Positions 2,919 through 59,312 of a DNA stretch of 64,000 bases are shown piece after piece; within the stretch, counting starts at the first letter, position 1; each line of letters begins with the position of its first letter. This DNA comes from Escherichia coli (GTDB lineage: Bacteria > Pseudomonadota > Gammaproteobacteria > Enterobacterales > Enterobacteriaceae): the NCBI RefSeq assembly GCF_001677475.2, contig NZ_CP015229.1. One strand, 5' to 3'. Below the pieces are notes generated by a model. It worked only from the letters and a program-made list of their open reading frames with translations, was not told where the DNA came from and ran no database searches. Both the position numbers and the translations under genes were made by a program.

Positions 2919-4826
2919 ATGTCATTAATCAGTATGCATGGCGCATGGCTGTCGTTCAGCGACGCGCCGCTTCTCGATAACGCAGAACTGCATATCGAAG
3001 ATAACGAACGTGTTTGTCTGGTGGGCCGCAACGGCGCAGGCAAATCGACGTTAATGAAAATCCTCAACCGTGAACAAGGGCTGGATGACGGTCGCATTAT
3101 TTACGAGCAAGATTTGATTGTAGCTCGTCTGCAACAGGATCCGCCGCGTAACGTTGAGGGGAGTGTTTATGATTTCGTTGCCGAAGGCATTGAAGAACAA
3201 GCGGAATACCTGAAACGCTATCACGATATTTCGCGCCTGGTGATGAACGACCCGAGCGAGAAAAATCTCAACGAACTGGCGAAGGTTCAGGAACAGCTGG
3301 ATCACCACAACCTGTGGCAGCTGGAAAACCGCATCAACGAAGTGCTGGCGCAACTGGGGTTAGATCCTAACGTTGCGCTGTCGTCGCTTTCCGGCGGCTG
3401 GTTGCGTAAAGCGGCATTAGGACGCGCGCTGGTGAGCAATCCGCGCGTATTGCTGCTCGACGAACCGACTAACCACCTGGATATCGAAACCATCGACTGG
3501 CTGGAAGGATTCCTTAAAACCTTCAATGGGACGATAATTTTCATCTCCCACGACCGTTCGTTTATCCGCAATATGGCGACGCGCATTGTTGATCTCGATC
3601 GCGGCAAGCTTGTGACCTATCCTGGGAATTACGACCAGTACCTGCTGGAAAAAGAAGAAGCCCTGCGCGTGGAAGAACTACAAAATGCCGAGTTCGATCG
3701 CAAACTGGCGCAGGAAGAGGTGTGGATCCGCCAGGGGATCAAAGCACGCCGTACCCGTAATGAAGGCCGCGTACGCGCCCTGAAAGCAATGCGTCGCGAG
3801 CGTGGCGAACGTCGCGAAGTGATGGGTACCGCAAAGATGCAGGTGGAAGAGGCCAGCCGTTCCGGTAAGATCGTTTTCGAAATGGAAGACGTTTGCTACC
3901 AGGTCGACGGTAAGCAACTGGTGAAAGATTTTTCGGCCCAGGTTCTACGTGGCGACAAAATTGCCCTGATTGGTCCGAATGGATGCGGCAAAACCACGCT
4001 GCTGAAACTGATGCTCGGTCAGCTTCAGGCGGACAGCGGGCGTATTCACGTTGGCACCAAACTGGAAGTGGCTTATTTCGATCAGCACCGTGCGGAACTG
4101 GATCCCGATAAAACGGTGATGGATAACCTTGCTGAAGGTAAGCAAGAGGTGATGGTTAACGGCAAGCCACGCCATGTTTTGGGCTATTTGCAGGACTTCC
4201 TGTTCCATCCGAAACGGGCGATGACGCCGGTACGTGCGCTTTCTGGCGGTGAGCGTAACCGCTTGTTGTTGGCGCGTTTGTTCCTCAAACCAAGCAACTT
4301 ATTGATTCTTGACGAACCGACCAACGATCTTGATGTTGAAACGCTGGAACTGCTGGAAGAACTGATCGACAGCTACCAGGGCACGGTATTGCTGGTGAGC
4401 CACGATCGTCAGTTTGTCGATAACACCGTTACAGAATGCTGGATCTTCGAAGGCGGCGGTAAAATTGGTCGTTATGTCGGCGGTTATCATGATGCCCGTG
4501 GTCAGCAAGAACAGTATGTGGCGCTCAAACAGCCTGCGGTGAAAAAAATCGAAGAAGCCGCCGCGCCAAAAGCAGAAACTGTAAAACGCAGCAGTAGCAA
4601 ACTAAGCTATAAATTGCAGCGCGAACTGGAGCAGCTACCGCAATTGCTCGAAGATCTGGAGGCGAAGCTGGAAGCCCTACAGACGCAGGTGGCGGATGCT
4701 TCCTTCTTCAGTCAGCCGCATGAGCAGACACAAAAAGTGCTCGCTGATATGGCTGCTGCAGAGCAGGAGCTGGAGCAAGCCTTTGAACGCTGGGAGTATC
4801 TTGAAGCGTTAAAAAATGGTGGCTGA
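2919..4826 (+). CDS. uup: ABC-F family ATPase Uup
   Basis: 635 aa, two ABC cassettes (GRNGAGKST / GPNGCGKTT, LSGGE signatures), C-terminal coiled coil. Confidence 0.93.
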   Translation: MSLISMHGAWLSFSDAPLLDNAELHIEDNERVCLVGRNGAGKSTLMKILNREQGLDDGRIIYEQDLIVARLQQDPPRNVEGSVYDFVAEGIEEQAEYLKRYHDISRLVMNDPSEKNLNELAKVQEQLDHHNLWQLENRINEVLAQLGLDPNVALSSLSGGWLRKAALGRALVSNPRVLLLDEPTNHLDIETIDWLEGFLKTFNGTIIFISHDRSFIRNMATRIVDLDRGKLVTYPGNYDQYLLEKEEALRVEELQNAEFDRKLAQEEVWIRQGIKARRTRNEGRVRALKAMRRERGERREVMGTAKMQVEEASRSGKIVFEMEDVCYQVDGKQLVKDFSAQVLRGDKIALIGPNGCGKTTLLKLMLGQLQADSGRIHVGTKLEVAYFDQHRAELDPDKTVMDNLAEGKQEVMVNGKPRHVLGYLQDFLFHPKRAMTPVRALSGGERNRLLLARLFLKPSNLLILDEPTNDLDVETLELLEELIDSYQGTVLLVSHDRQFVDNTVTECWIFEGGGKIGRYVGGYHDARGQQEQYVALKQPAVKKIEEAAAPKAETVKRSSSKLSYKLQRELEQLPQLLEDLEAKLEALQTQVADASFFSQPHEQTQKVLADMAAAEQELEQAFERWEYLEALKNGG

Positions 4827-37031: not shown

Positions 37032-37244
37032 ATGAATACTCTTACCAAAGAATGGTTACAGAACACGATTACCAGCATTGAGTCAGCACGGGATGAAATA
37101 CCATTCGGACTCGATGAAGATCAAAGCAACATGCTTACCGCATTTACATTCCGGCGAGGAGAAGCAACGATTAAGCCGGGTAATGGTATTGAGCAGGCAA
37201 CTCACAGGATGAAATTACCGGAACCGCCGCAGGAGGTGAACTGA
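37032..37244 (+). CDS. Hypothetical protein
   Basis: 70-aa ORF; N-terminus paralogous to ORF 36369. Confidence 0.35.
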   Translation: MNTLTKEWLQNTITSIESARDEIPFGLDEDQSNMLTAFTFRRGEATIKPGNGIEQATHRMKLPEPPQEVN

Positions 37245-37639
37245 TGAAAGATGAAGTCGACAATGTTATCACCCTGGTACAGCCAAAATCAGAGGAGGAA
37301 GGACTCCTCAACGTTGTGATAACCGACAGAAAAAGCGGCGAGCAAAAATGCTGTCAGCATATCCGTACAACAATTTCAGAAGTGAATCGTACGATTACCT
37401 GCAACCGGTGTGGATTAGCTTTAGAGCCATTCGAGTTTATTCTCGATCGTGCGAGAAACGGTGAAAACATCGTGTCTGAGATTAAATCACTCTATGCAAA
37501 GCGGGATGCTCTTCGTGAAGCTGTGGCAAAACTTGAACGTGAAGAGAAAAACGCCAAAGCCCGGTTACGAGCAGCCAGGACAGCAATACTGTATGCGGAA
37601 AATGACCTTAAAAATATTGAGCAGGAGGTGAATCGATGA
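37244..37639 (+). CDS. Hypothetical protein with CxxC zinc motif and coiled coil
   Basis: 131-aa ORF. Confidence 0.4.
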   Translation: MKDEVDNVITLVQPKSEEEGLLNVVITDRKSGEQKCCQHIRTTISEVNRTITCNRCGLALEPFEFILDRARNGENIVSEIKSLYAKRDALREAVAKLEREEKNAKARLRAARTAILYAENDLKNIEQEVNR

Positions 37640-37719
37640 CCTGGCCTGAGGCATTCACCACGGTAGGAATTGCGATGGCGGTGGCGCTGGTGGTGTATTC
37701 GATTTGCCGCTGGGGATAA
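37636..37719 (+). CDS. Possible 27-aa hydrophobic peptide
   Basis: MTWPEAFTTVGIAMAVALVVYSICRWG, ATGA overlap with upstream gene. Confidence 0.25.
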   Translation: MTWPEAFTTVGIAMAVALVVYSICRWG

Positions 37720-37843
37720 ATCGCCGAAAAAAGATCCCGACACAAACATGAGCCGGGATCTTTGATTTATATAGCCTACGAATCCGCCAGTAAGAGAGGG
37801 GGCGGATGGTTTATTCTACCACCGGAATGATGTGGGTAAAAAT

Positions 37844-38143
37844 TTATAAGAAATCGGTTTCATAACTTTGCCCACCATGATAGATACCGACAATAAAGAC
37901 TTTTCTGCCATCAACGGCAAAAGCAATAATCGTTCTGTGGCGGAAATGAGTTACCCGCATCCCCTGGCGAATATCATCGCGTTTATTGCCCCGATGCGGG
38001 AATGTAGAAAACCCATCAAGATAATCAAGAAGCGCATTGGCATAATTGTCAGCAATGACGTTCCCTGCTTTCTCCGTTATATATCTGTGCAGGTTGATTA
38101 TTTGTTGTTCGGCCTCAGGAGTAATGATGACTTCATATGTCAT
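37844..38143 (-). CDS. ParE/RelE-family toxin
   Basis: 99 aa; paired with upstream ParD-like gene. Confidence 0.65.
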   Translation of the reverse strand: MTYEVIITPEAEQQIINLHRYITEKAGNVIADNYANALLDYLDGFSTFPHRGNKRDDIRQGMRVTHFRHRTIIAFAVDGRKVFIVGIYHGGQSYETDFL

Positions 38144-38148
38144 GCAGA

Positions 38149-38406
38149 TTACTTCCCGGATCGAATCGCGGCGCGAACCTGTGAAATGGAGCGTCCGTTG
38201 TTTGGATTTTCGCGGATAGAATCAAGAGAGGGGGCGGCTGAATGCGTTAACCACGCTTCGATTGCTTTATCGCGCTCATTCAGTGCGCGAAGCCCTTCAC
38301 GAATGACCTCGCTTTCTGAAGCATAGGCACCGGAAGCCACACGGGCGCGCACCATGTCAGCCATCTCGTTAGTTAATGTAATGCTGAATTGTTGGGTTGT
38401 ACGCAT
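38149..38406 (-). CDS. ParD-like ribbon-helix-helix antitoxin
   Basis: From MRTTQQFSITLTNEMADMVRARVASGAYASESEVIREGLRAL. Confidence 0.65.
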   Translation of the reverse strand: MRTTQQFSITLTNEMADMVRARVASGAYASESEVIREGLRALNERDKAIEAWLTHSAAPSLDSIRENPNNGRSISQVRAAIRSGK

Positions 38407-41639: not shown

Positions 41640-42353
41640 ATGGCTGTTGTCTGTTCAGTTATCATGGTTTGCTCCCCAATTAATATTTTTCTTGAAAAGG
41701 ATAAGTTGTCACTTAAGCCCGGCTCAGTCGTTCTGGCCACCAAATGCATCAGGGAGCTGTTCCTTATGCATTATGGCAAAGTTAAAATTGTCGATATAAA
41801 CCATTCCATAGTAAGTCAATATCTGGAAAGTCAGCATAAGCTGACGAGGACTCGTCTGACTGACATTCCGCTTTACCTGTTCCTGGAACCCAACAATCCT
41901 GCGTTGGCTGCGGCTTTAATTACCAGCCAGAGATTTTACGGAGATACCACGGATATGTTTCTTATGATGGCCTGCCTGTCGCTGTTTGAATCAGATGAAC
42001 GGATGTCATTATTTTTAAGTGGATGTTTATCCAGTATAAGTGCCAAAGTCAGAGCGATAATTCAAACAGATATATCTGCAAACTGGATGCTCGGTGCGAT
42101 TGCGTTACGCCTGCATATGAGTGAGAGTTTGTTAAAGATAAAACTGAAAAATGAAGGGCATATGTTCAGTCGCTTGTTGCTGGAAGAGCGGATGCGGGTT
42201 GCTGTAAATATGTTATGTTCCCGGGATGGGTATGGACAGACAGTGGCAGAAAAATGCGGTTATTCAAGTAGGTCCTATTTTATCTCTGTATTTCACCGCT
42301 ATTATGGCTTCCCGCCAGACAGATATGTATCTATGCAAGGGCTTGATTTTTGA
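41640..42353 (+). CDS. AraC-family transcriptional regulator (prophage cargo)
   Basis: C-terminal AraC HTH (...GYSSRSYFISVFHRYYGFPPDRY); AT-rich; start may be internal Met. Confidence 0.6.
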   Translation: MAVVCSVIMVCSPINIFLEKDKLSLKPGSVVLATKCIRELFLMHYGKVKIVDINHSIVSQYLESQHKLTRTRLTDIPLYLFLEPNNPALAAALITSQRFYGDTTDMFLMMACLSLFESDERMSLFLSGCLSSISAKVRAIIQTDISANWMLGAIALRLHMSESLLKIKLKNEGHMFSRLLLEERMRVAVNMLCSRDGYGQTVAEKCGYSSRSYFISVFHRYYGFPPDRYVSMQGLDF

Positions 42354-42379: not shown

Positions 42380-42455
42380 GGCCCTTTAGCTCAGTGGTGA
42401 GAGCGAGCGACTCATAATCGCCAGGTCGCTGGTTCAAATCCAGCAAGGGCCACCA
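42380..42455 (+). tRNA. tRNA with CAT anticodon (Met or Ile2-lysidine; ileZ-like)
   Basis: 76 nt cloverleaf, anticodon loop CTCATAA, terminal CCA. Confidence 0.8.
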
Positions 42456-42554: not shown

Positions 42555-42631
42555 GCGTTGTTAGCTCAGTCGGACAGAGCAATTGCCTTCTAAGCAATCG
42601 GTCACTGGTTCGAATCCAGTACAACGCGCCA
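42555..42631 (+). tRNA. tRNA-Arg (anticodon TCT; argO-like)
   Basis: 77 nt, anticodon loop CTTCTAA, GGTTCGAATCC T-loop, terminal CCA. Confidence 0.8.
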
Positions 42632-42804: not shown

Positions 42805-43230
42805 ATGTTTGGTATTTTTAAAAAGAAAACCCGCAAGGCCATTACCGAAGTGAAGAAGATGGAGAACCGCGACGCAGTGGAGGCGACCGTCTGGGGTGCG
42901 TATTCCATTGCATACGCTGACGGCACCTGTGACGCGAAAGAAATCGCAGTGCTGGAGAAAACCATTGCAGCACTTCCTGCCTTTGCGCCGTTCTCCGGTG
43001 AGATTGCACAAATGAGTGCAAATATCCGCGCCCGTTATGAAGCGTCACCGCGTTCTGCCAATGCCGAAGCCCTTCGTCAGCTGGCTGATGTTGCCGGTAC
43101 TGATGATGCAGTTAATGTGCTGTGCCTGTGTCTGGATATCGCTGACCAGGACGGCATTGGCCCGGATGAAGAAGCGCAGCTCAAGAAAATTGCTCAGGCG
43201 CTGCAGTTGCCGCTGGAGCAGTACCTGTGA
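42805..43230 (+). CDS. TerB-like domain protein
   Basis: 141-aa acidic helical protein between tRNA cluster and holin; family assignment is tentative. Confidence 0.4.
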   Translation: MFGIFKKKTRKAITEVKKMENRDAVEATVWGAYSIAYADGTCDAKEIAVLEKTIAALPAFAPFSGEIAQMSANIRARYEASPRSANAEALRQLADVAGTDDAVNVLCLCLDIADQDGIGPDEEAQLKKIAQALQLPLEQYL

Positions 43231-43491
43231 AAAGTGCGCGCCTTGTGCTGGCTGCCATCCTGCTGTTTCTGGTAGTGGTGGTGGATTTTACCGGACGGCT
43301 GATGTCGGTACTGGCAGATGGTGTGCTGGTGGTGATGGTGCTGGTCGTGCTCCGGCCTTTACTGCGCAAATCTGAATAACACCACGCAAAAGGCATCTGC
43401 GGGTGCCTTTGATTGGGTGTTGTTTTTACGGGCCGCTGGTGGCCTTTTTTTGTTTCCATTACACAACGCCCGCATCTGCGAGGTGGGGGTT

Positions 43492-45206: not shown

Positions 45207-45689
45207 ATGTCAGGACCTCCGAAAACCCCGCCACGCCTGCATTTGATACGAGGCAACCCCTCAAAGCGCCCCGTTAAAGACCACAAAAAAACCGCTAAAA
45301 AGGATGAAAAAGGTCTTCCTAAAATTCCGCAGCATTTAGGGGCTCAGGGGAAGTACTGGTTCAGGCGAATGGCGGAAGAGCTGAATGCGGAAGGGATCAT
45401 TTCTCAGCTTGATGCGCGTGCACTCGAGTTGCTGGTGGAAGCCTACACCGAATATCGGCATCACTGCGAAACACTCGATGTTGAGGGGTATACCTACCGC
45501 ACGGAAACGCAGAGCGGTGATGTACTGATTAAGGCGCACCCCGCGGCGGCAATGAAAGCGGATGCCTGGAAGCGGATCCGGGCAATGCTTGCAGAGTTTG
45601 GTATGTCACCGGCAAGCCGGGCTAAAGTAAATATCGCCGGACCGGATGATGTTGATCCGCTGGCGGAGCTTTTAAAAGCGAGAGACTGA
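45207..45689 (+). CDS. Terminase small subunit (P27-family-like)
   Basis: 160 aa; homologous to the satellite TerS at 59601. Confidence 0.7.
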   Translation: MSGPPKTPPRLHLIRGNPSKRPVKDHKKTAKKDEKGLPKIPQHLGAQGKYWFRRMAEELNAEGIISQLDARALELLVEAYTEYRHHCETLDVEGYTYRTETQSGDVLIKAHPAAAMKADAWKRIRAMLAEFGMSPASRAKVNIAGPDDVDPLAELLKARD

Positions 45690-46716
45690 TGGCAAAAGTG
45701 GCTGACGGGATCCGCTACGCCGAACGTGTTGTTGCAGGAGAAATTGTTGCTGGCGAATTTGTCCGCCTGGCCTGCCAGCGTTTTCTTGATGATCTGAAGT
45801 ACGGCGAAGAGCGGGGGATTTATTTCAGTGAACCCCGTGCGCAGCACATCCTGAATTTCTACAAATTTGTGCCTCATGTAAAAGGGGCGCTGGCAGGCCA
45901 GCCCATTGAGTTGATGGACTGGCATGTATTTATTCTCATTAATATTTTTGGTTTTGTCATTCCGCTGGTCAATGAAGAGACCGGGGAAGTTGTCATGCGC
46001 AGCGATGGCAGTGGACGTCCGGTGATGGTGCGCCGGTTCCGGACGGCGTACAACGAAGTCGCTCGTAAAAACGCAAAATCAACTCTGTCATCGGGTATCG
46101 GCCTGTATATGACGGGGGCAGATGGTGAAGGCGGAGCTGAGGTGTATTCAGCCGCAACCACGCGTGACCAGGCCAGAATCGTGTTTGAAGACGCCAAAAA
46201 TATGGTCAGAAAAGCCCGGTCGACACTCGGGCGGTTGTTTGATTTCAACAAGCTGGCGATTTACCAGGAGCAGAGCGCATCAAAATTTGAACCGCTTTCT
46301 TCGGATGCAAACAACCTAGACGGTCTGAACATCCACTGCGCCATTATTGATGAGCTGCATGCACATAAAACCCGCGACGTGTGGGACGTTCTGGAAACGG
46401 CAACCGGTGCCCGTCTGCAGTCCCTGTTATTTGGTATCACCACGGCGGGCTTTAACAAGGAAGGGATTTGTTACGAGCAACGCGATTACGCCATCAAGGT
46501 ATTGCGAGGCTATAACAGCGACGTGGAGGGCGCGGTAAAAGACGACTCCTACTTTGCGATTATTTACACGCTCGATGAGGGAGATGATCCGTTTGATGAA
46601 ACGGTCTGGCAGAAAGCGAATCCGGGCCTGGGCATCTGTAAACGCTGGGATGATCTGCGTCGTCTGGCGAAAAAAGCGAAGGAGCAGGTCTCGGCGCGGG
46701 TGAATTTTTTCACGAA
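45689..46716 (+). pseudogene. Prophage terminase large subunit, N-terminal ~343 codons, interrupted by satellite insertion
   Basis: Aligns with satellite TerL N-terminus (PHVKGA..G.PIEL..W); frame runs into unrelated satellite DNA and stops at 46882. Confidence 0.8.
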
Positions 46717-46845
46717 GAAAGTAACATCACGCCGTAACAACAGTGCAGTCTGTCCTGATTTTTTTAGTAACCAAATGAAAGAAAAAGATTTTTTCTTGTT
46801 CGTCGTTTTTGTTTTTTCTGGATGGTTCTGGCTGTTTTCATCATT

Positions 46846-46867
46846 TGTGTATTGCACTGTGTATTGC
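46846..46867. repeat. Tandem GTGTATTGC repeats near satellite left end
   Basis: tgtgtattgcactgtgtattgc; near-identical copy at 62023-62043. Confidence 0.6.
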
Positions 46868-46887
46868 AAAAACGGGTTATAAATCAC

Positions 46888-48111
46888 ATGGCGCTAAACA
46901 AACTGAGCGATAAAAAACTTCGTTCCCTGCTTGGACGCAGGAGTGAGAGACAGGAAACCATCGCTGATGGTAACGGGCTTTCGGTACGGGTCAGTAAATA
47001 CGGATGTGTTAGTTTTGTTTTCTTTTACAGACTGGCGGGAAGGGGAACCGCGCCCATCTGGCTGACACTTGGAAAATATCCTGATCTGAGTCTCAAATCA
47101 GCGAGAGAGATGCGCGATCAGTGTCGAACCTGGCTTGCGGAGGGCAGAGATCCACGGATTCAGATAAAAATTGAACGGGAAGCCACCTTGCAACCTGTTA
47201 CCGTTCGTGAGGCACTTGAATACTGGCTTGATAATTATGCAATGGATAAGCGTAGGGGAGCAGAACATATCAGGCAGTGCTTTGGTAAACATATTTATCC
47301 GGTGATTGGTCATGTACCACTTAGTGATTGCTCTATATCTATGTGGATTAAGTGTTTTGACAAAATAAAAAAAGTAGCACCTGTACAGGCCGGAGCTTTG
47401 TTGCGTATATCAAAACAGGCGCTTAAATTTTGTAGGGTAAGAAAATACGCGATTAGTCATGAAATTGATGATCTTGAGGTCTGTGATGTGGGAAAAAAGT
47501 CTGCGCGAAGAAGCAGGGTTTTAACAGATGATGAAATCAGAGATTTATGGCGAAGTATTAATACTGATTATGACAATCACGAATTATCATATGAAAACCG
47601 AATTATTTTACGTTTCCTGGTAGTTTTTGGTTGCCGACTGTCAGAAGTATTACTGTCGTCCTGGGGAGAGTGGGATTTTGATAAGAAATTATGGCGCGTT
47701 CCCGCTGAACATAGCAAAAATGGCAGGGAAATAATCAGACCGATTCCTGATGGCATGTTTAACTGGTTAGTTACGTTAAAAAAAATAACAGGTAACAAAG
47801 AAAATGTGATTGGGTTTGATATGCGTCAGTGTACGGCAAGCGTAACTATCGGTAAGACATGGAAAAGGATGAAACACTCGGAGAAATGGACGGCGCATGA
47901 TATGCGAAGAGTGTTTGCCACAAAACTAAGTGATCATGGTTTTGAACATAATGTGGTTGAACAGTTGCTTGGGCACACATTAGGCGGTGTTGCCGGGGTT
48001 TATAACAGAAGCCAGTATATGGACAGAAAAAAAGAAGCTATGAACTGGTGGTACGACTATCTGAATAAGCAAATTAGTGGTGACGGTAATGATTCAAATA
48101 GTTACGCGTGA
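46888..48111 (+). CDS. int: P4-type tyrosine integrase
   Basis: 407 aa from MALNKLSDKKLRSLLGRR..GLSVRVSKYG (typical P4-family N-terminus); HDMRRVFAT...LGH...Y. Confidence 0.85.
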   Translation: MALNKLSDKKLRSLLGRRSERQETIADGNGLSVRVSKYGCVSFVFFYRLAGRGTAPIWLTLGKYPDLSLKSAREMRDQCRTWLAEGRDPRIQIKIEREATLQPVTVREALEYWLDNYAMDKRRGAEHIRQCFGKHIYPVIGHVPLSDCSISMWIKCFDKIKKVAPVQAGALLRISKQALKFCRVRKYAISHEIDDLEVCDVGKKSARRSRVLTDDEIRDLWRSINTDYDNHELSYENRIILRFLVVFGCRLSEVLLSSWGEWDFDKKLWRVPAEHSKNGREIIRPIPDGMFNWLVTLKKITGNKENVIGFDMRQCTASVTIGKTWKRMKHSEKWTAHDMRRVFATKLSDHGFEHNVVEQLLGHTLGGVAGVYNRSQYMDRKKEAMNWWYDYLNKQISGDGNDSNSYA

Positions 48112-50504: not shown

Positions 50505-50790
50505 AAACCGCTTGCAAAAAATTATCACGGGACTGTATGCTTCCCGCGTCACCCACATGGTGACCGGGTTTGACAGCCTGAATACTACAGCGGACAGCCG
50601 CTTACATTCCGATATGCGGTTTTTTTGTGTCCGTAAACCTACCCATACCCGCATTATGGCGGGGCGTAACGGGGGAGCCTTTGCGCTCGCTGGTTCCTGT
50701 AGTGCCAGTCTGTCAACCCTGTTACGTCTCGCCACCATGTTTGACAGCGTAGTAGCGAGACTCCTTAATTTCACTACAGGAGCCTTTCAC

Positions 50791-58580: not shown

Positions 58581-58872
58581 AGAAAAAATTACACCTGATG
58601 AAGTCAGGGCACATCTTCGCCTTGATGACTTTTCCGGAGAGGGCGAACTTCTGAAAATGTATACCGATGCGGCGCTGGAAGCCTGCCAGAAGCATATCGG
58701 GAAACGTTTTGAAGACGGCCTGGAATTTACCCCGGCAATACGTGTTGGTTGCCTGATGTACATTGCTTTCCTGTACGAGAACAGGGAAGCGGTTTCACCT
58801 GTGGAGCAGTCTGAACTGCCTATGGCTATTTCTGCGCTCTGGTCGGTTTATCGTGATGTGGGGGTGTACTGA
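58573..58872 (+). CDS. Head-tail connector/adaptor (gp6-like)
   Basis: 99 aa from MSEEKITPDEVRAHLRLDDFSGEGELL. Confidence 0.6.
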   Translation: MSEEKITPDEVRAHLRLDDFSGEGELLKMYTDAALEACQKHIGKRFEDGLEFTPAIRVGCLMYIAFLYENREAVSPVEQSELPMAISALWSVYRDVGVY

Positions 58873-59312
58873 TGCCGTGGCAACCATTAAGGCGATGCAC
58901 TGAGCCGGGCTGTAATAAGCGCGTGAAGTCCGGCAAGTGTGAAGAGCACAGGCGGGCTGCATGGCGTGCAGAGGATGCCAGACGGGGACACCGCCGCGCG
59001 CGCGGGTATTCCCGACAGTGGGACAAATACCGCGCCCTGTACCTGAGCAAAAACCCGTTATGCGTGCGTTGTCTGGCTAAGGGGATTTATACGCCAGCTC
59101 TTGTGGTGGATCACATCATTCCCATCAATGGCGGCGGTGATGTTCTCTTCTGGCCTGAGTGGAACCACCAGGCATTGTGCCAGACGTGCCACAACCGTAA
59201 GACGACACGGGAAGACCCAGCCACGAAAGCGAACCGTAAGGCGGGCATGTATCGCGAGCAGGAAGAACGGGCGGCACACCGTAACGACTGGATGTATGGC
59301 GATGATGACTGA
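58872..59312 (+). CDS. HNH endonuclease (terminase-associated)
   Basis: 146 aa; CVRCL...VDHIIPINGGG...CQTCHNRKT. Confidence 0.75.
   Translation: MPWQPLRRCTEPGCNKRVKSGKCEEHRRAAWRAEDARRGHRRARGYSRQWDKYRALYLSKNPLCVRCLAKGIYTPALVVDHIIPINGGGDVLFWPEWNHQALCQTCHNRKTTREDPATKANRKAGMYREQEERAAHRNDWMYGDDD

Follow-up and report, generated by a model that had tools for sequence, protein, structure and literature searches.

A Conserved 27-Codon ORF of Lambdoid and P1-like Phages of Escherichia Is Very Probably an Overlooked Membrane-Peptide Gene, and a Neighbouring 50-Codon ORF Is a tciB Homologue

Gene Content of the Prophage Region

The window analysed here (64,000 nt of Escherichia coli, contig NZ_CP015229.1) holds a lambdoid prophage carrying two short hydrophobic ORFs, ORF-A and ORF-B (Table 1). 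The closest complete genome is that of E. coli RM10466, with 99.7% identity over positions 37200-37860, in which the genes run in the order DUF1627, DUF977, HTH, DUF4406, hypotheticals, a 131-aa hypothetical, convergent RelE/ParE and ParD, DUF968, RusA and the Q antiterminator. This gene order places ORF-A in the delayed-early, nin-like accessory region. To its right in the window come an AraC-like gene, tRNAs, a TerB-family gene, ORF-B, an S21-type pinholin, a phage lysozyme and Rz/Rz1. The original prediction, that both ORFs encode small hydrophobic peptides, is very likely to be correct, judging from the comparative evidence described below, and the stop/start overlaps point to translational coupling of each ORF with the gene before it. 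Short ORFs as such are plentiful by chance, with 198 of at least 20 aa within 11 kb of the window, and one of them alone is not above expectation, so the significance of both ORFs comes solely from comparison with other genomes.

Table 1. Positions of ORF-A, ORF-B and neighbouring features in the window.
Feature	Position	Strand	Remarks
131-aa gene, 5' of ORF-A	37244-37639	+	phrog_1621, function unknown
Conserved linker CAGGAGGTGAAT	37622-37633	+	holds the Shine-Dalgarno sequence of ORF-A; also codes for the last residues of the 131-aa gene
ORF-A	37636-37719	+	ATG 37636 to TAA 37717-37719; 27 codons, 84 nt; predicted product MTWPEAFTTVGIAMAVALVVYSICRWG
Terminator-like hairpin, bidirectional	37730-37763	both	between ORF-A and convergent ParE/ParD; fold z = -3.8 (+), -4.0 (-)
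ParE/RelE toxin	37844-38143	-	convergent to ORF-A
ParD antitoxin	38149-38406	-	accessory module (moron) with ParE, 37730-38406
AraC-like gene	41640-42353		before the tRNAs and tciA
tRNA-Met(cat)	42380-42455	+	between AraC-like gene and tciA
tRNA-Arg(tct)	42555-42631	+	between AraC-like gene and tciA
tciA/TerB-family gene, partner of ORF-B	42805-43230	+	Pfam TerB E = 1.2e-7; phrog_632 E = 4e-65
ORF-B, tciB homologue, DUF3927 family	43227-43379	+	GTG 43227 to TAA 43377-43379; 50 aa, two hydrophobic segments
Hairpin and terminator-like site, tciB to holin	43389-43455	+	9-bp hairpin 43389-43410; GC stem 43430-43445 and T-run

ORF-A was found exactly as it had been described, a 27-aa hydrophobic reading frame whose start codon overlaps the TGA stop of the upstream 131-aa gene in the sequence ATGA. 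The overlap is 4 nt and the frame of ORF-A is -1 relative to that of the upstream gene. A Shine-Dalgarno (SD) sequence, AGGAGG, lies at 37623-37628, 7 nt 5' of the ATG. The 12-nt linker that contains it, CAGGAGGTGAAY, occurs twice in the window, at 37230-37241 and 37622-37633, bracketing the 131-aa gene (chance expectation 0.17), and in many other phages the DUF551/Ea22-like genes (ending ...PEPPQEVNQ before the stop) finish in the same 12 nt. The linker looks like a short recombination joint for cassette swapping. Just upstream of the 131-aa gene, a 70-aa ORF (37032-37244) terminates with ...KLPEPPQEVN, a C-terminus characteristic of DUF551/Ea22-like proteins; its counterparts in RM10466 are partial pseudogenes according to PGAP, and it is probably a remnant of cassette insertion.

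On the other side of ORF-A, the terminator-like hairpin at 37730-37763 is part of the toxin-antitoxin module and not of ORF-A, because it accompanies RelE/ParE elsewhere and is missing where ORF-A is followed by hok or xis. In other phages, hok/sok fills the slot after ORF-A that is occupied here by ParE/ParD.

ORF-B and the tciA-tciB Pair

ORF-B is in the predicted position, starting at GTG 43227 between the TerB-like gene and the holin, but it has 50 codons and not about 49. Its start codon overlaps the TGA of the TerB-like gene as GTGA. It is the already known tciB/DUF3927 gene. Its score with the Pfam family DUF3927 (PF13064) is 49.2 bits, for which the cutoff is 25 (E = 5e-13; profile positions 4-48 of 53), it matches PHROG 1470, 'TciB-like', with E = 1.9e-23, and BLASTP gives 45% identity and 72% similarity to TciB of P1 over 47 aa (E = 2e-9). 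Both proteins have about 50 aa and two hydrophobic segments, and both are encoded directly 3' of, and overlapping, a TerB-family tciA, which in the window has 79% nucleotide identity to tciA of P1. A tblastn search of the phage collection with ORF-B gave no match, probably as a result of low-complexity masking, and a DNA search was used instead.

PGAP calls an ORF-B homologue with the same start in strain 08-00022, "DUF3927 family protein" (WP_000833650.1). The claim that both genes had been missed therefore stands for ORF-A, which carries no annotation in the records inspected, but not for ORF-B, which is routinely annotated by PGAP and was hidden only by the 60-aa cutoff of the ORF list. The role of TciB (tellurite/colicin resistance, cell-division inhibition) is given in the P1 annotation only 'by homology', and a literature search for 'TciB' returned only papers on Trypanosoma genotypes.

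The surroundings of the pair differ between the two phages. In P1, tciA-tciB lies beside tRNAs and ban, away from the lysis genes, and there are tRNA genes on both sides of tciABC, whereas in the window its neighbours are the Q antiterminator/tRNAs on one side and the S21-type pinholin of a lambdoid prophage on the other. Unlike P1, no tciC-like third ORF was seen after ORF-B in the window. The whole tciA-tciB-holin arrangement is common to only five E. coli records. The true start of the S21-type holin is ATG 43492, since its longest ORF matches Pfam only from residue 30 onwards, and the holin annotated by PGAP in the closest relative has 71 aa. Since ORF-B travels with tciA, is located off the lysis genes in P1, and is separated here from the holin by hairpins and a terminator-like site, it is best read, on comparative grounds, as part of a tciA-tciB accessory pair (a moron) located after the Q antiterminator and before the lysis cassette, and not as a component of that cassette. 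The suggestion that it could be a lysis modulator is thereby disfavoured.

ORF-A as a Mosaic Block

When ORF-A was compared by blastn with complete E. coli genomes and phages, the homology block was found to begin 2 nt 5' of the ATG and to end 1 nt past the stop codon, with differing flanks on either side. In the DUF551/Ea22 contexts the block begins 15 nt 5' of the ATG, and so includes the SD. At least four unrelated gene ends precede it, namely those of DUF551/Ea22-type proteins (...PEPPQEVNQ), a 114-aa protein (...VEDILR), the 131-aa protein of the window (...IEQEVNR) and EaA, and at least five contexts follow it, including hok/sok, parDE, small genes before xis-int, and ea22. In 173 of 180 copies the start of ORF-A overlaps the stop of a long upstream ORF as ATGA, and these upstream ORFs come in dozens of different lengths. 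ORF-A is often situated about 150 nt 5' of a hok/sok locus, but the hok module is a separate mosaic unit with its own boundaries. Inclusion of ORF-A in the hok promoter region or mRNA was considered and rejected; a -35/-10-like pair (TTTGCG...TAGAAT, identified by eye) falls after the ORF-A stop codon, and ORF-A also occurs without hok.

With a 90-nt query, ORF-A was detected in 1,609 of the 5,426 complete E. coli genomes (about 30%), at 3,061 places altogether, with up to seven per genome and 163 on plasmids. Carriers include the Stx phages 933W, VT2-Sakai and VT1-Sakai, other lambdoid phages, and P1-like phage-plasmids; a shorter relative of 24 aa is found in the P1-like Salmonella phage SJ46. 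A collection of 100,044 species, with one genome each, gave only two matches, one in an Escherichia sp. and the other in a 369-bp contig labelled Acinetobacter, and the family is thus essentially limited to phages of Escherichia/Shigella. Given this narrow taxonomic range, the sampled sequences are closely related and not independent of each other. No homologue was detected by tblastn with three peptide variants in the Rac and Qin prophage regions of K-12 MG1655 (the two regions covered by the search), so that small-protein data sets from K-12 are probably uninformative on ORF-A.

Some host labels among the matching records look doubtful. The 369-bp contig, assigned to 'Acinetobacter idrijaensis', encodes a peptide with 81% aa identity to that of ORF-A, and a record named 'Actinobacillus phage vB_Apl-pPE4' (PP818812.1) has ORF-A, hok and tciA-tciB, which are 95-97% identical to those of the prophage in the window.

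Evidence for Coding

Searches by tblastn aligned the whole of ORF-A (residues 1-27) in 91 of the 93 phage records, with aa identities as low as 59%, which indicates that the 27-codon length is conserved. All intact copies have 27 codons, apart from the 24-aa relative in SJ46 and two copies with in-frame deletions. Because an initial set of IMG/VR sequences had kept only the best protein matches and was biased towards identical peptides, the codon analysis was redone on a frame-blind sample of 120 IMG/VR loci, fetched only by the DNA of a 17-mer at the 3' end of ORF-A; two chance matches were dropped, leaving 118. Of these, 109 are intact, two have in-frame deletions of 6 nt, four have TAG at codon 3, two (representing one allele) have a 1-nt deletion, and one is truncated. 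Two of the three indel events are multiples of three.

Over the 66 nt outside the anchor, this sample gave a pN/pS of 0.33 for the ORF-A frame, compared with 1.12 and 2.20 for the two alternative forward frames, and minimum changes at codon positions 1, 2 and 3 of 20, 13 and 32. A more divergent set, derived by blast, gave 0.41 in frame against 1.06 and 1.70. Values of 0.3-0.4 represent moderate constraint only. An SD motif precedes the ATG by 4-12 nt in all but two of the 53 distinct upstream contexts, and in 43 of these 51 it is GGAGG or AGGAGG.

Nonsense alleles (TGG to TAG) at codon 3 were found in four of the 118 copies and in two phage records (loci L011, L016, L133, L140, L170 and L177), on at least three sequence backgrounds, and codon 3 is the only nonsense position among about 200 copies. 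The same tryptophan, W3, has become R in six copies, and one copy lacks both W3 and P4. The TAG alleles may stem from repeated mutation, from recombination over short tracts, or from selection acting against the peptide. With about 5% of copies broken, mostly by the codon-3 amber, the gene must be dispensable.

The peptide does not appear in the supplementary tables of two ribosome-profiling studies, on EHEC strains Sakai and EDL933, of which the Sakai translatome study took only intergenic ORFs of at least 30 aa, above the size of ORF-A. A full-text search with the peptide strings found no paper, and two papers on the exo-xis/ea22 region make no mention of a transmembrane ORF after ea22.

The Predicted Peptide

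Residues 6-24 of the predicted product have a mean Kyte-Doolittle value of 2.1, and the best 19-mer has a Hessa sum of about +0.2 kcal/mol (mean 0.18 over 32 variants). Residues M1, A6, G11, R25 and W26 are nearly invariant, and W3 (mostly), P4, E/D5, Y/F21, S/A22 and G27 are also conserved, with positions 1-6 being partly constrained by the way in which the sequences were retrieved. The middle of the peptide varies among V, I, L, M, A, T and F, so that one hydrophobic residue is swapped for another. The two tryptophans, W3 and W26, flank the hydrophobic stretch 23 positions apart, a spacing that fits two membrane interfaces. Altogether, the product looks like a single Trp-flanked transmembrane helix, running roughly from A6 to C24. 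According to the positive-inside rule, with R25 as the sole basic residue, the helix is predicted to run from an N-terminus outside to a C-terminus inside; the N-terminal end, which is short and acidic (E5), would then probably face the periplasm, and R25 would be on the cytoplasmic side. The small residues at positions 6, 13 and 17, together with G11 and A15, would permit close helix packing.

AcrZ, MgtS, PmrR, KdpF, CydX and YohP are small single-pass inner-membrane proteins of E. coli, a class discovered by comparative genomics and models of ribosome binding sites. ORF-A resembles them in having fewer than 50 aa, one hydrophobic helix and a strong SD, and also in having been missed by annotation, in its moderate constraint and in its hydrophobic substitutions. 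Of the features of the class, small size, a hydrophobic stretch, conserved start, SD and frame, and purifying selection in frame are found in ORF-A. It differs from the AcrZ/MgtS-type proteins in that it has no sequence relationship to them, is phage-borne, and is coupled to variable upstream genes. By analogy, ORF-A most likely works like the small single-pass inner-membrane proteins of E. coli.

Annotation and Family Status

No CDS is annotated on ORF-A in the four RefSeq E. coli loci inspected, nor in the phage records inspected, which included 933W, Stx2 converting phage I, ArgO145, VT1-Sakai, POCJ13 and SJ46. In the 933W record the corresponding stretch is 58832-58912 on the minus strand. 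Common gene callers have a length floor of 90 nt, and ORF-A is 84 nt long. Some submitters have nevertheless deposited the exact 27-aa sequence in NCBI nr, as "bacteriophage protein", "hypothetical protein FORC28_2400" or "prophage protein", and one variant is named "DUF551 domain-containing protein". The latter name seems to derive from the adjacent gene; a Pfam scan of the peptide detects no DUF551, and DUF551 proteins in the same 90% clusters are without the peptide.

No significant match of ORF-A to a Pfam, NCBIfam or PHROG family was found. KdpF (TIGR02115) was rejected, its 14.7 bits falling short of the cutoff of 26.85, and the match to DUF883_C has E = 0.04. PHROG 4612, a 57-position profile of unknown function, gave a weak and non-significant match (E = 0.019) of residues 1-23 to its positions 33-54, a match that may reflect upstream-extended calls of ORF-A in some phage records. 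ORF-A is very probably a conserved, widespread and overlooked membrane-peptide gene, almost never annotated and belonging to no named family.

Discussion

The reading that is considered likely is that ORF-A is a genuine, translationally coupled 27-codon gene of the lambdoid and P1-like phages of Escherichia/Shigella, specifying a single-helix accessory peptide, and that ORF-B is tciB. From the anatomy of the junction, ribosomes ending at the upstream TGA would re-initiate at the overlapping ATG of ORF-A, aided by the strong SD, while some may start directly on that SD, and ORF-A would be the terminal gene of an early accessory operon. The peptide would then insert in the inner membrane as one helix. 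It could be speculated, from the features of its sequence, that it packs against a host or phage membrane protein in early lytic development, for which G11 and the stripe of small residues A6/A13/A17 would be suited. A narrower proposal is that the peptide binds or modulates a specific host inner-membrane machine (a transporter, sensor kinase, or DNA-entry or defence component) early in infection, with the codon-3 amber reflecting a cost in lysogens; this is tentative, and rather unlikely in so specific a form.

The mosaic nature of the region invites an entirely different view of the conserved 87-bp block, as a non-coding linker kept as a homologous-recombination joint for cassettes, in which the open frame is incidental. 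The block does fall exactly at mosaic joints, the linker CAGGAGGTGAAY flanks the 131-aa gene on both sides, and some copies have an amber codon or a frameshift. A joint, however, needs none of the coding-like traits of ORF-A: the third-position bias, the pN/pS of 0.33 against values above 1 in the other forward frames, an ATG, stop codon and 27-codon length that are kept down to 59% aa identity, indels of which two of three events are multiples of three, an SD in 51 of 53 contexts, and a hydrophobicity that is preserved. For these reasons the joint hypothesis is judged improbable. The conserved element could also work on the opposite strand, as an antisense ORF or RNA, or as a structured RNA on the + strand. 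In favour of this, the antisense frame that shares wobble positions with ORF-A has a pN/pS of 0.32 and contains no stop codon in 82 of 85 contexts. As this ratio matches that of the sense frame, codon statistics alone leave the strand unfixed, and it is the ATG, the SD, the block boundaries and the transmembrane-like composition that assign ORF-A to its strand. In the antisense frame neither a start codon nor an SD is conserved, both ends fall within the variable flanks, and the ratio is the expected mirror of a hydrophobic sense ORF. As for RNA, no Rfam family matched either strand at ORF-A (whole window at gathering thresholds, and a permissive scan of 37400-37900), the fold z values for the two strands are -0.84 and -0.23, and the alignment consensus of -1.7 kcal/mol shows no compensatory pairs. 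An opposite-strand or structured-RNA element is therefore very improbable.

The original prediction pointed out that small membrane peptides in prophages are often toxins or lysis modulators, and ORF-A might accordingly be thought of as a membrane toxin or a modulator of lysis timing, like DinQ, TisB and Hok or the partners of holins and antiholins. Its length and single hydrophobic helix do resemble those of type I toxins (Hok/Gef, DinQ, TisB, Ibs, Ldr), it often adjoins hok/sok or parDE modules, and the restriction of nonsense alleles to codon 3, on at least three backgrounds, could mean counter-selection of a harmful peptide. Unlike the type I toxins, however, ORF-A has no sequence similarity to them and no promoter of its own, there being no promoter-like site on the + strand near it, no long or folded 5' UTR, and no match to an antisense RNA family. 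It is coupled to the upstream early gene, and the adjacent toxin-antitoxin modules are separate mosaic units. It also lies in a delayed-early region far from the lysis cassette, being in the nin-like or ea22-xis region, 5.8 kb 5' of the holin in the window and elsewhere beside xis-int or hok; it is without the charged C-terminal tail that is typical of holins, and 92-94% of its copies are intact. A toxin or lysis role is thus less likely than that of an accessory peptide, and the chances of it are put as low as those of a recombination joint. Even slighter is the prospect that ORF-A is appended to the upstream protein as a C-terminal membrane anchor by a programmed -1 frameshift at ...CGA-TGA. 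The geometry would allow it, with ORF-A in the -1 frame and a 4-nt overlap; one allele on an IMG/VR contig (L019/L191) is an in-frame fusion, a 237-aa ORF with the 27-aa peptide as its C-terminal tail, and partial proteins in the ORF-A frame are named 'DUF551 domain-containing' in NCBI. Against this, the overlap has no slippery heptamer and is followed by no conserved stimulatory structure, the upstream genes are many and unrelated, the single 237-aa fusion looks like an ordinary frameshift mutation, and ATGA with a strong SD is the textbook layout for termination-reinitiation.

If ORF-A is translated, it would be a gene of approximately one in three sequenced E. coli strains, including those with 933W and Sakai Sp5/Sp15, that is systematically absent from RefSeq. 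Small membrane peptides have repeatedly been found to regulate transporters, kinases and pumps, and ORF-A offers an inexpensive, clearly delimited target for work on small proteins in the exo-xis/ea22 and nin accessory regions, which are poorly understood. No concept would be changed by it, and ORF-B adds only confirmation of the tciA-tciB pair next to a pinholin cassette.

Other parts of the prophage also have features of note. A C4 antisense RNA (RF01695; Rfam type antisense RNA) was detected at 50652-50739 on the + strand with 72.3 bits, above the gathering score, within an apparently late/structural section of the prophage. An ORF of 397 aa (45689-46882), which follows a 160-aa ORF (45207-45689), has an odd hydrophobic tail and is overlapped by the ORF at 46822-48111, an overlap that may reflect a frameshift or insertion.
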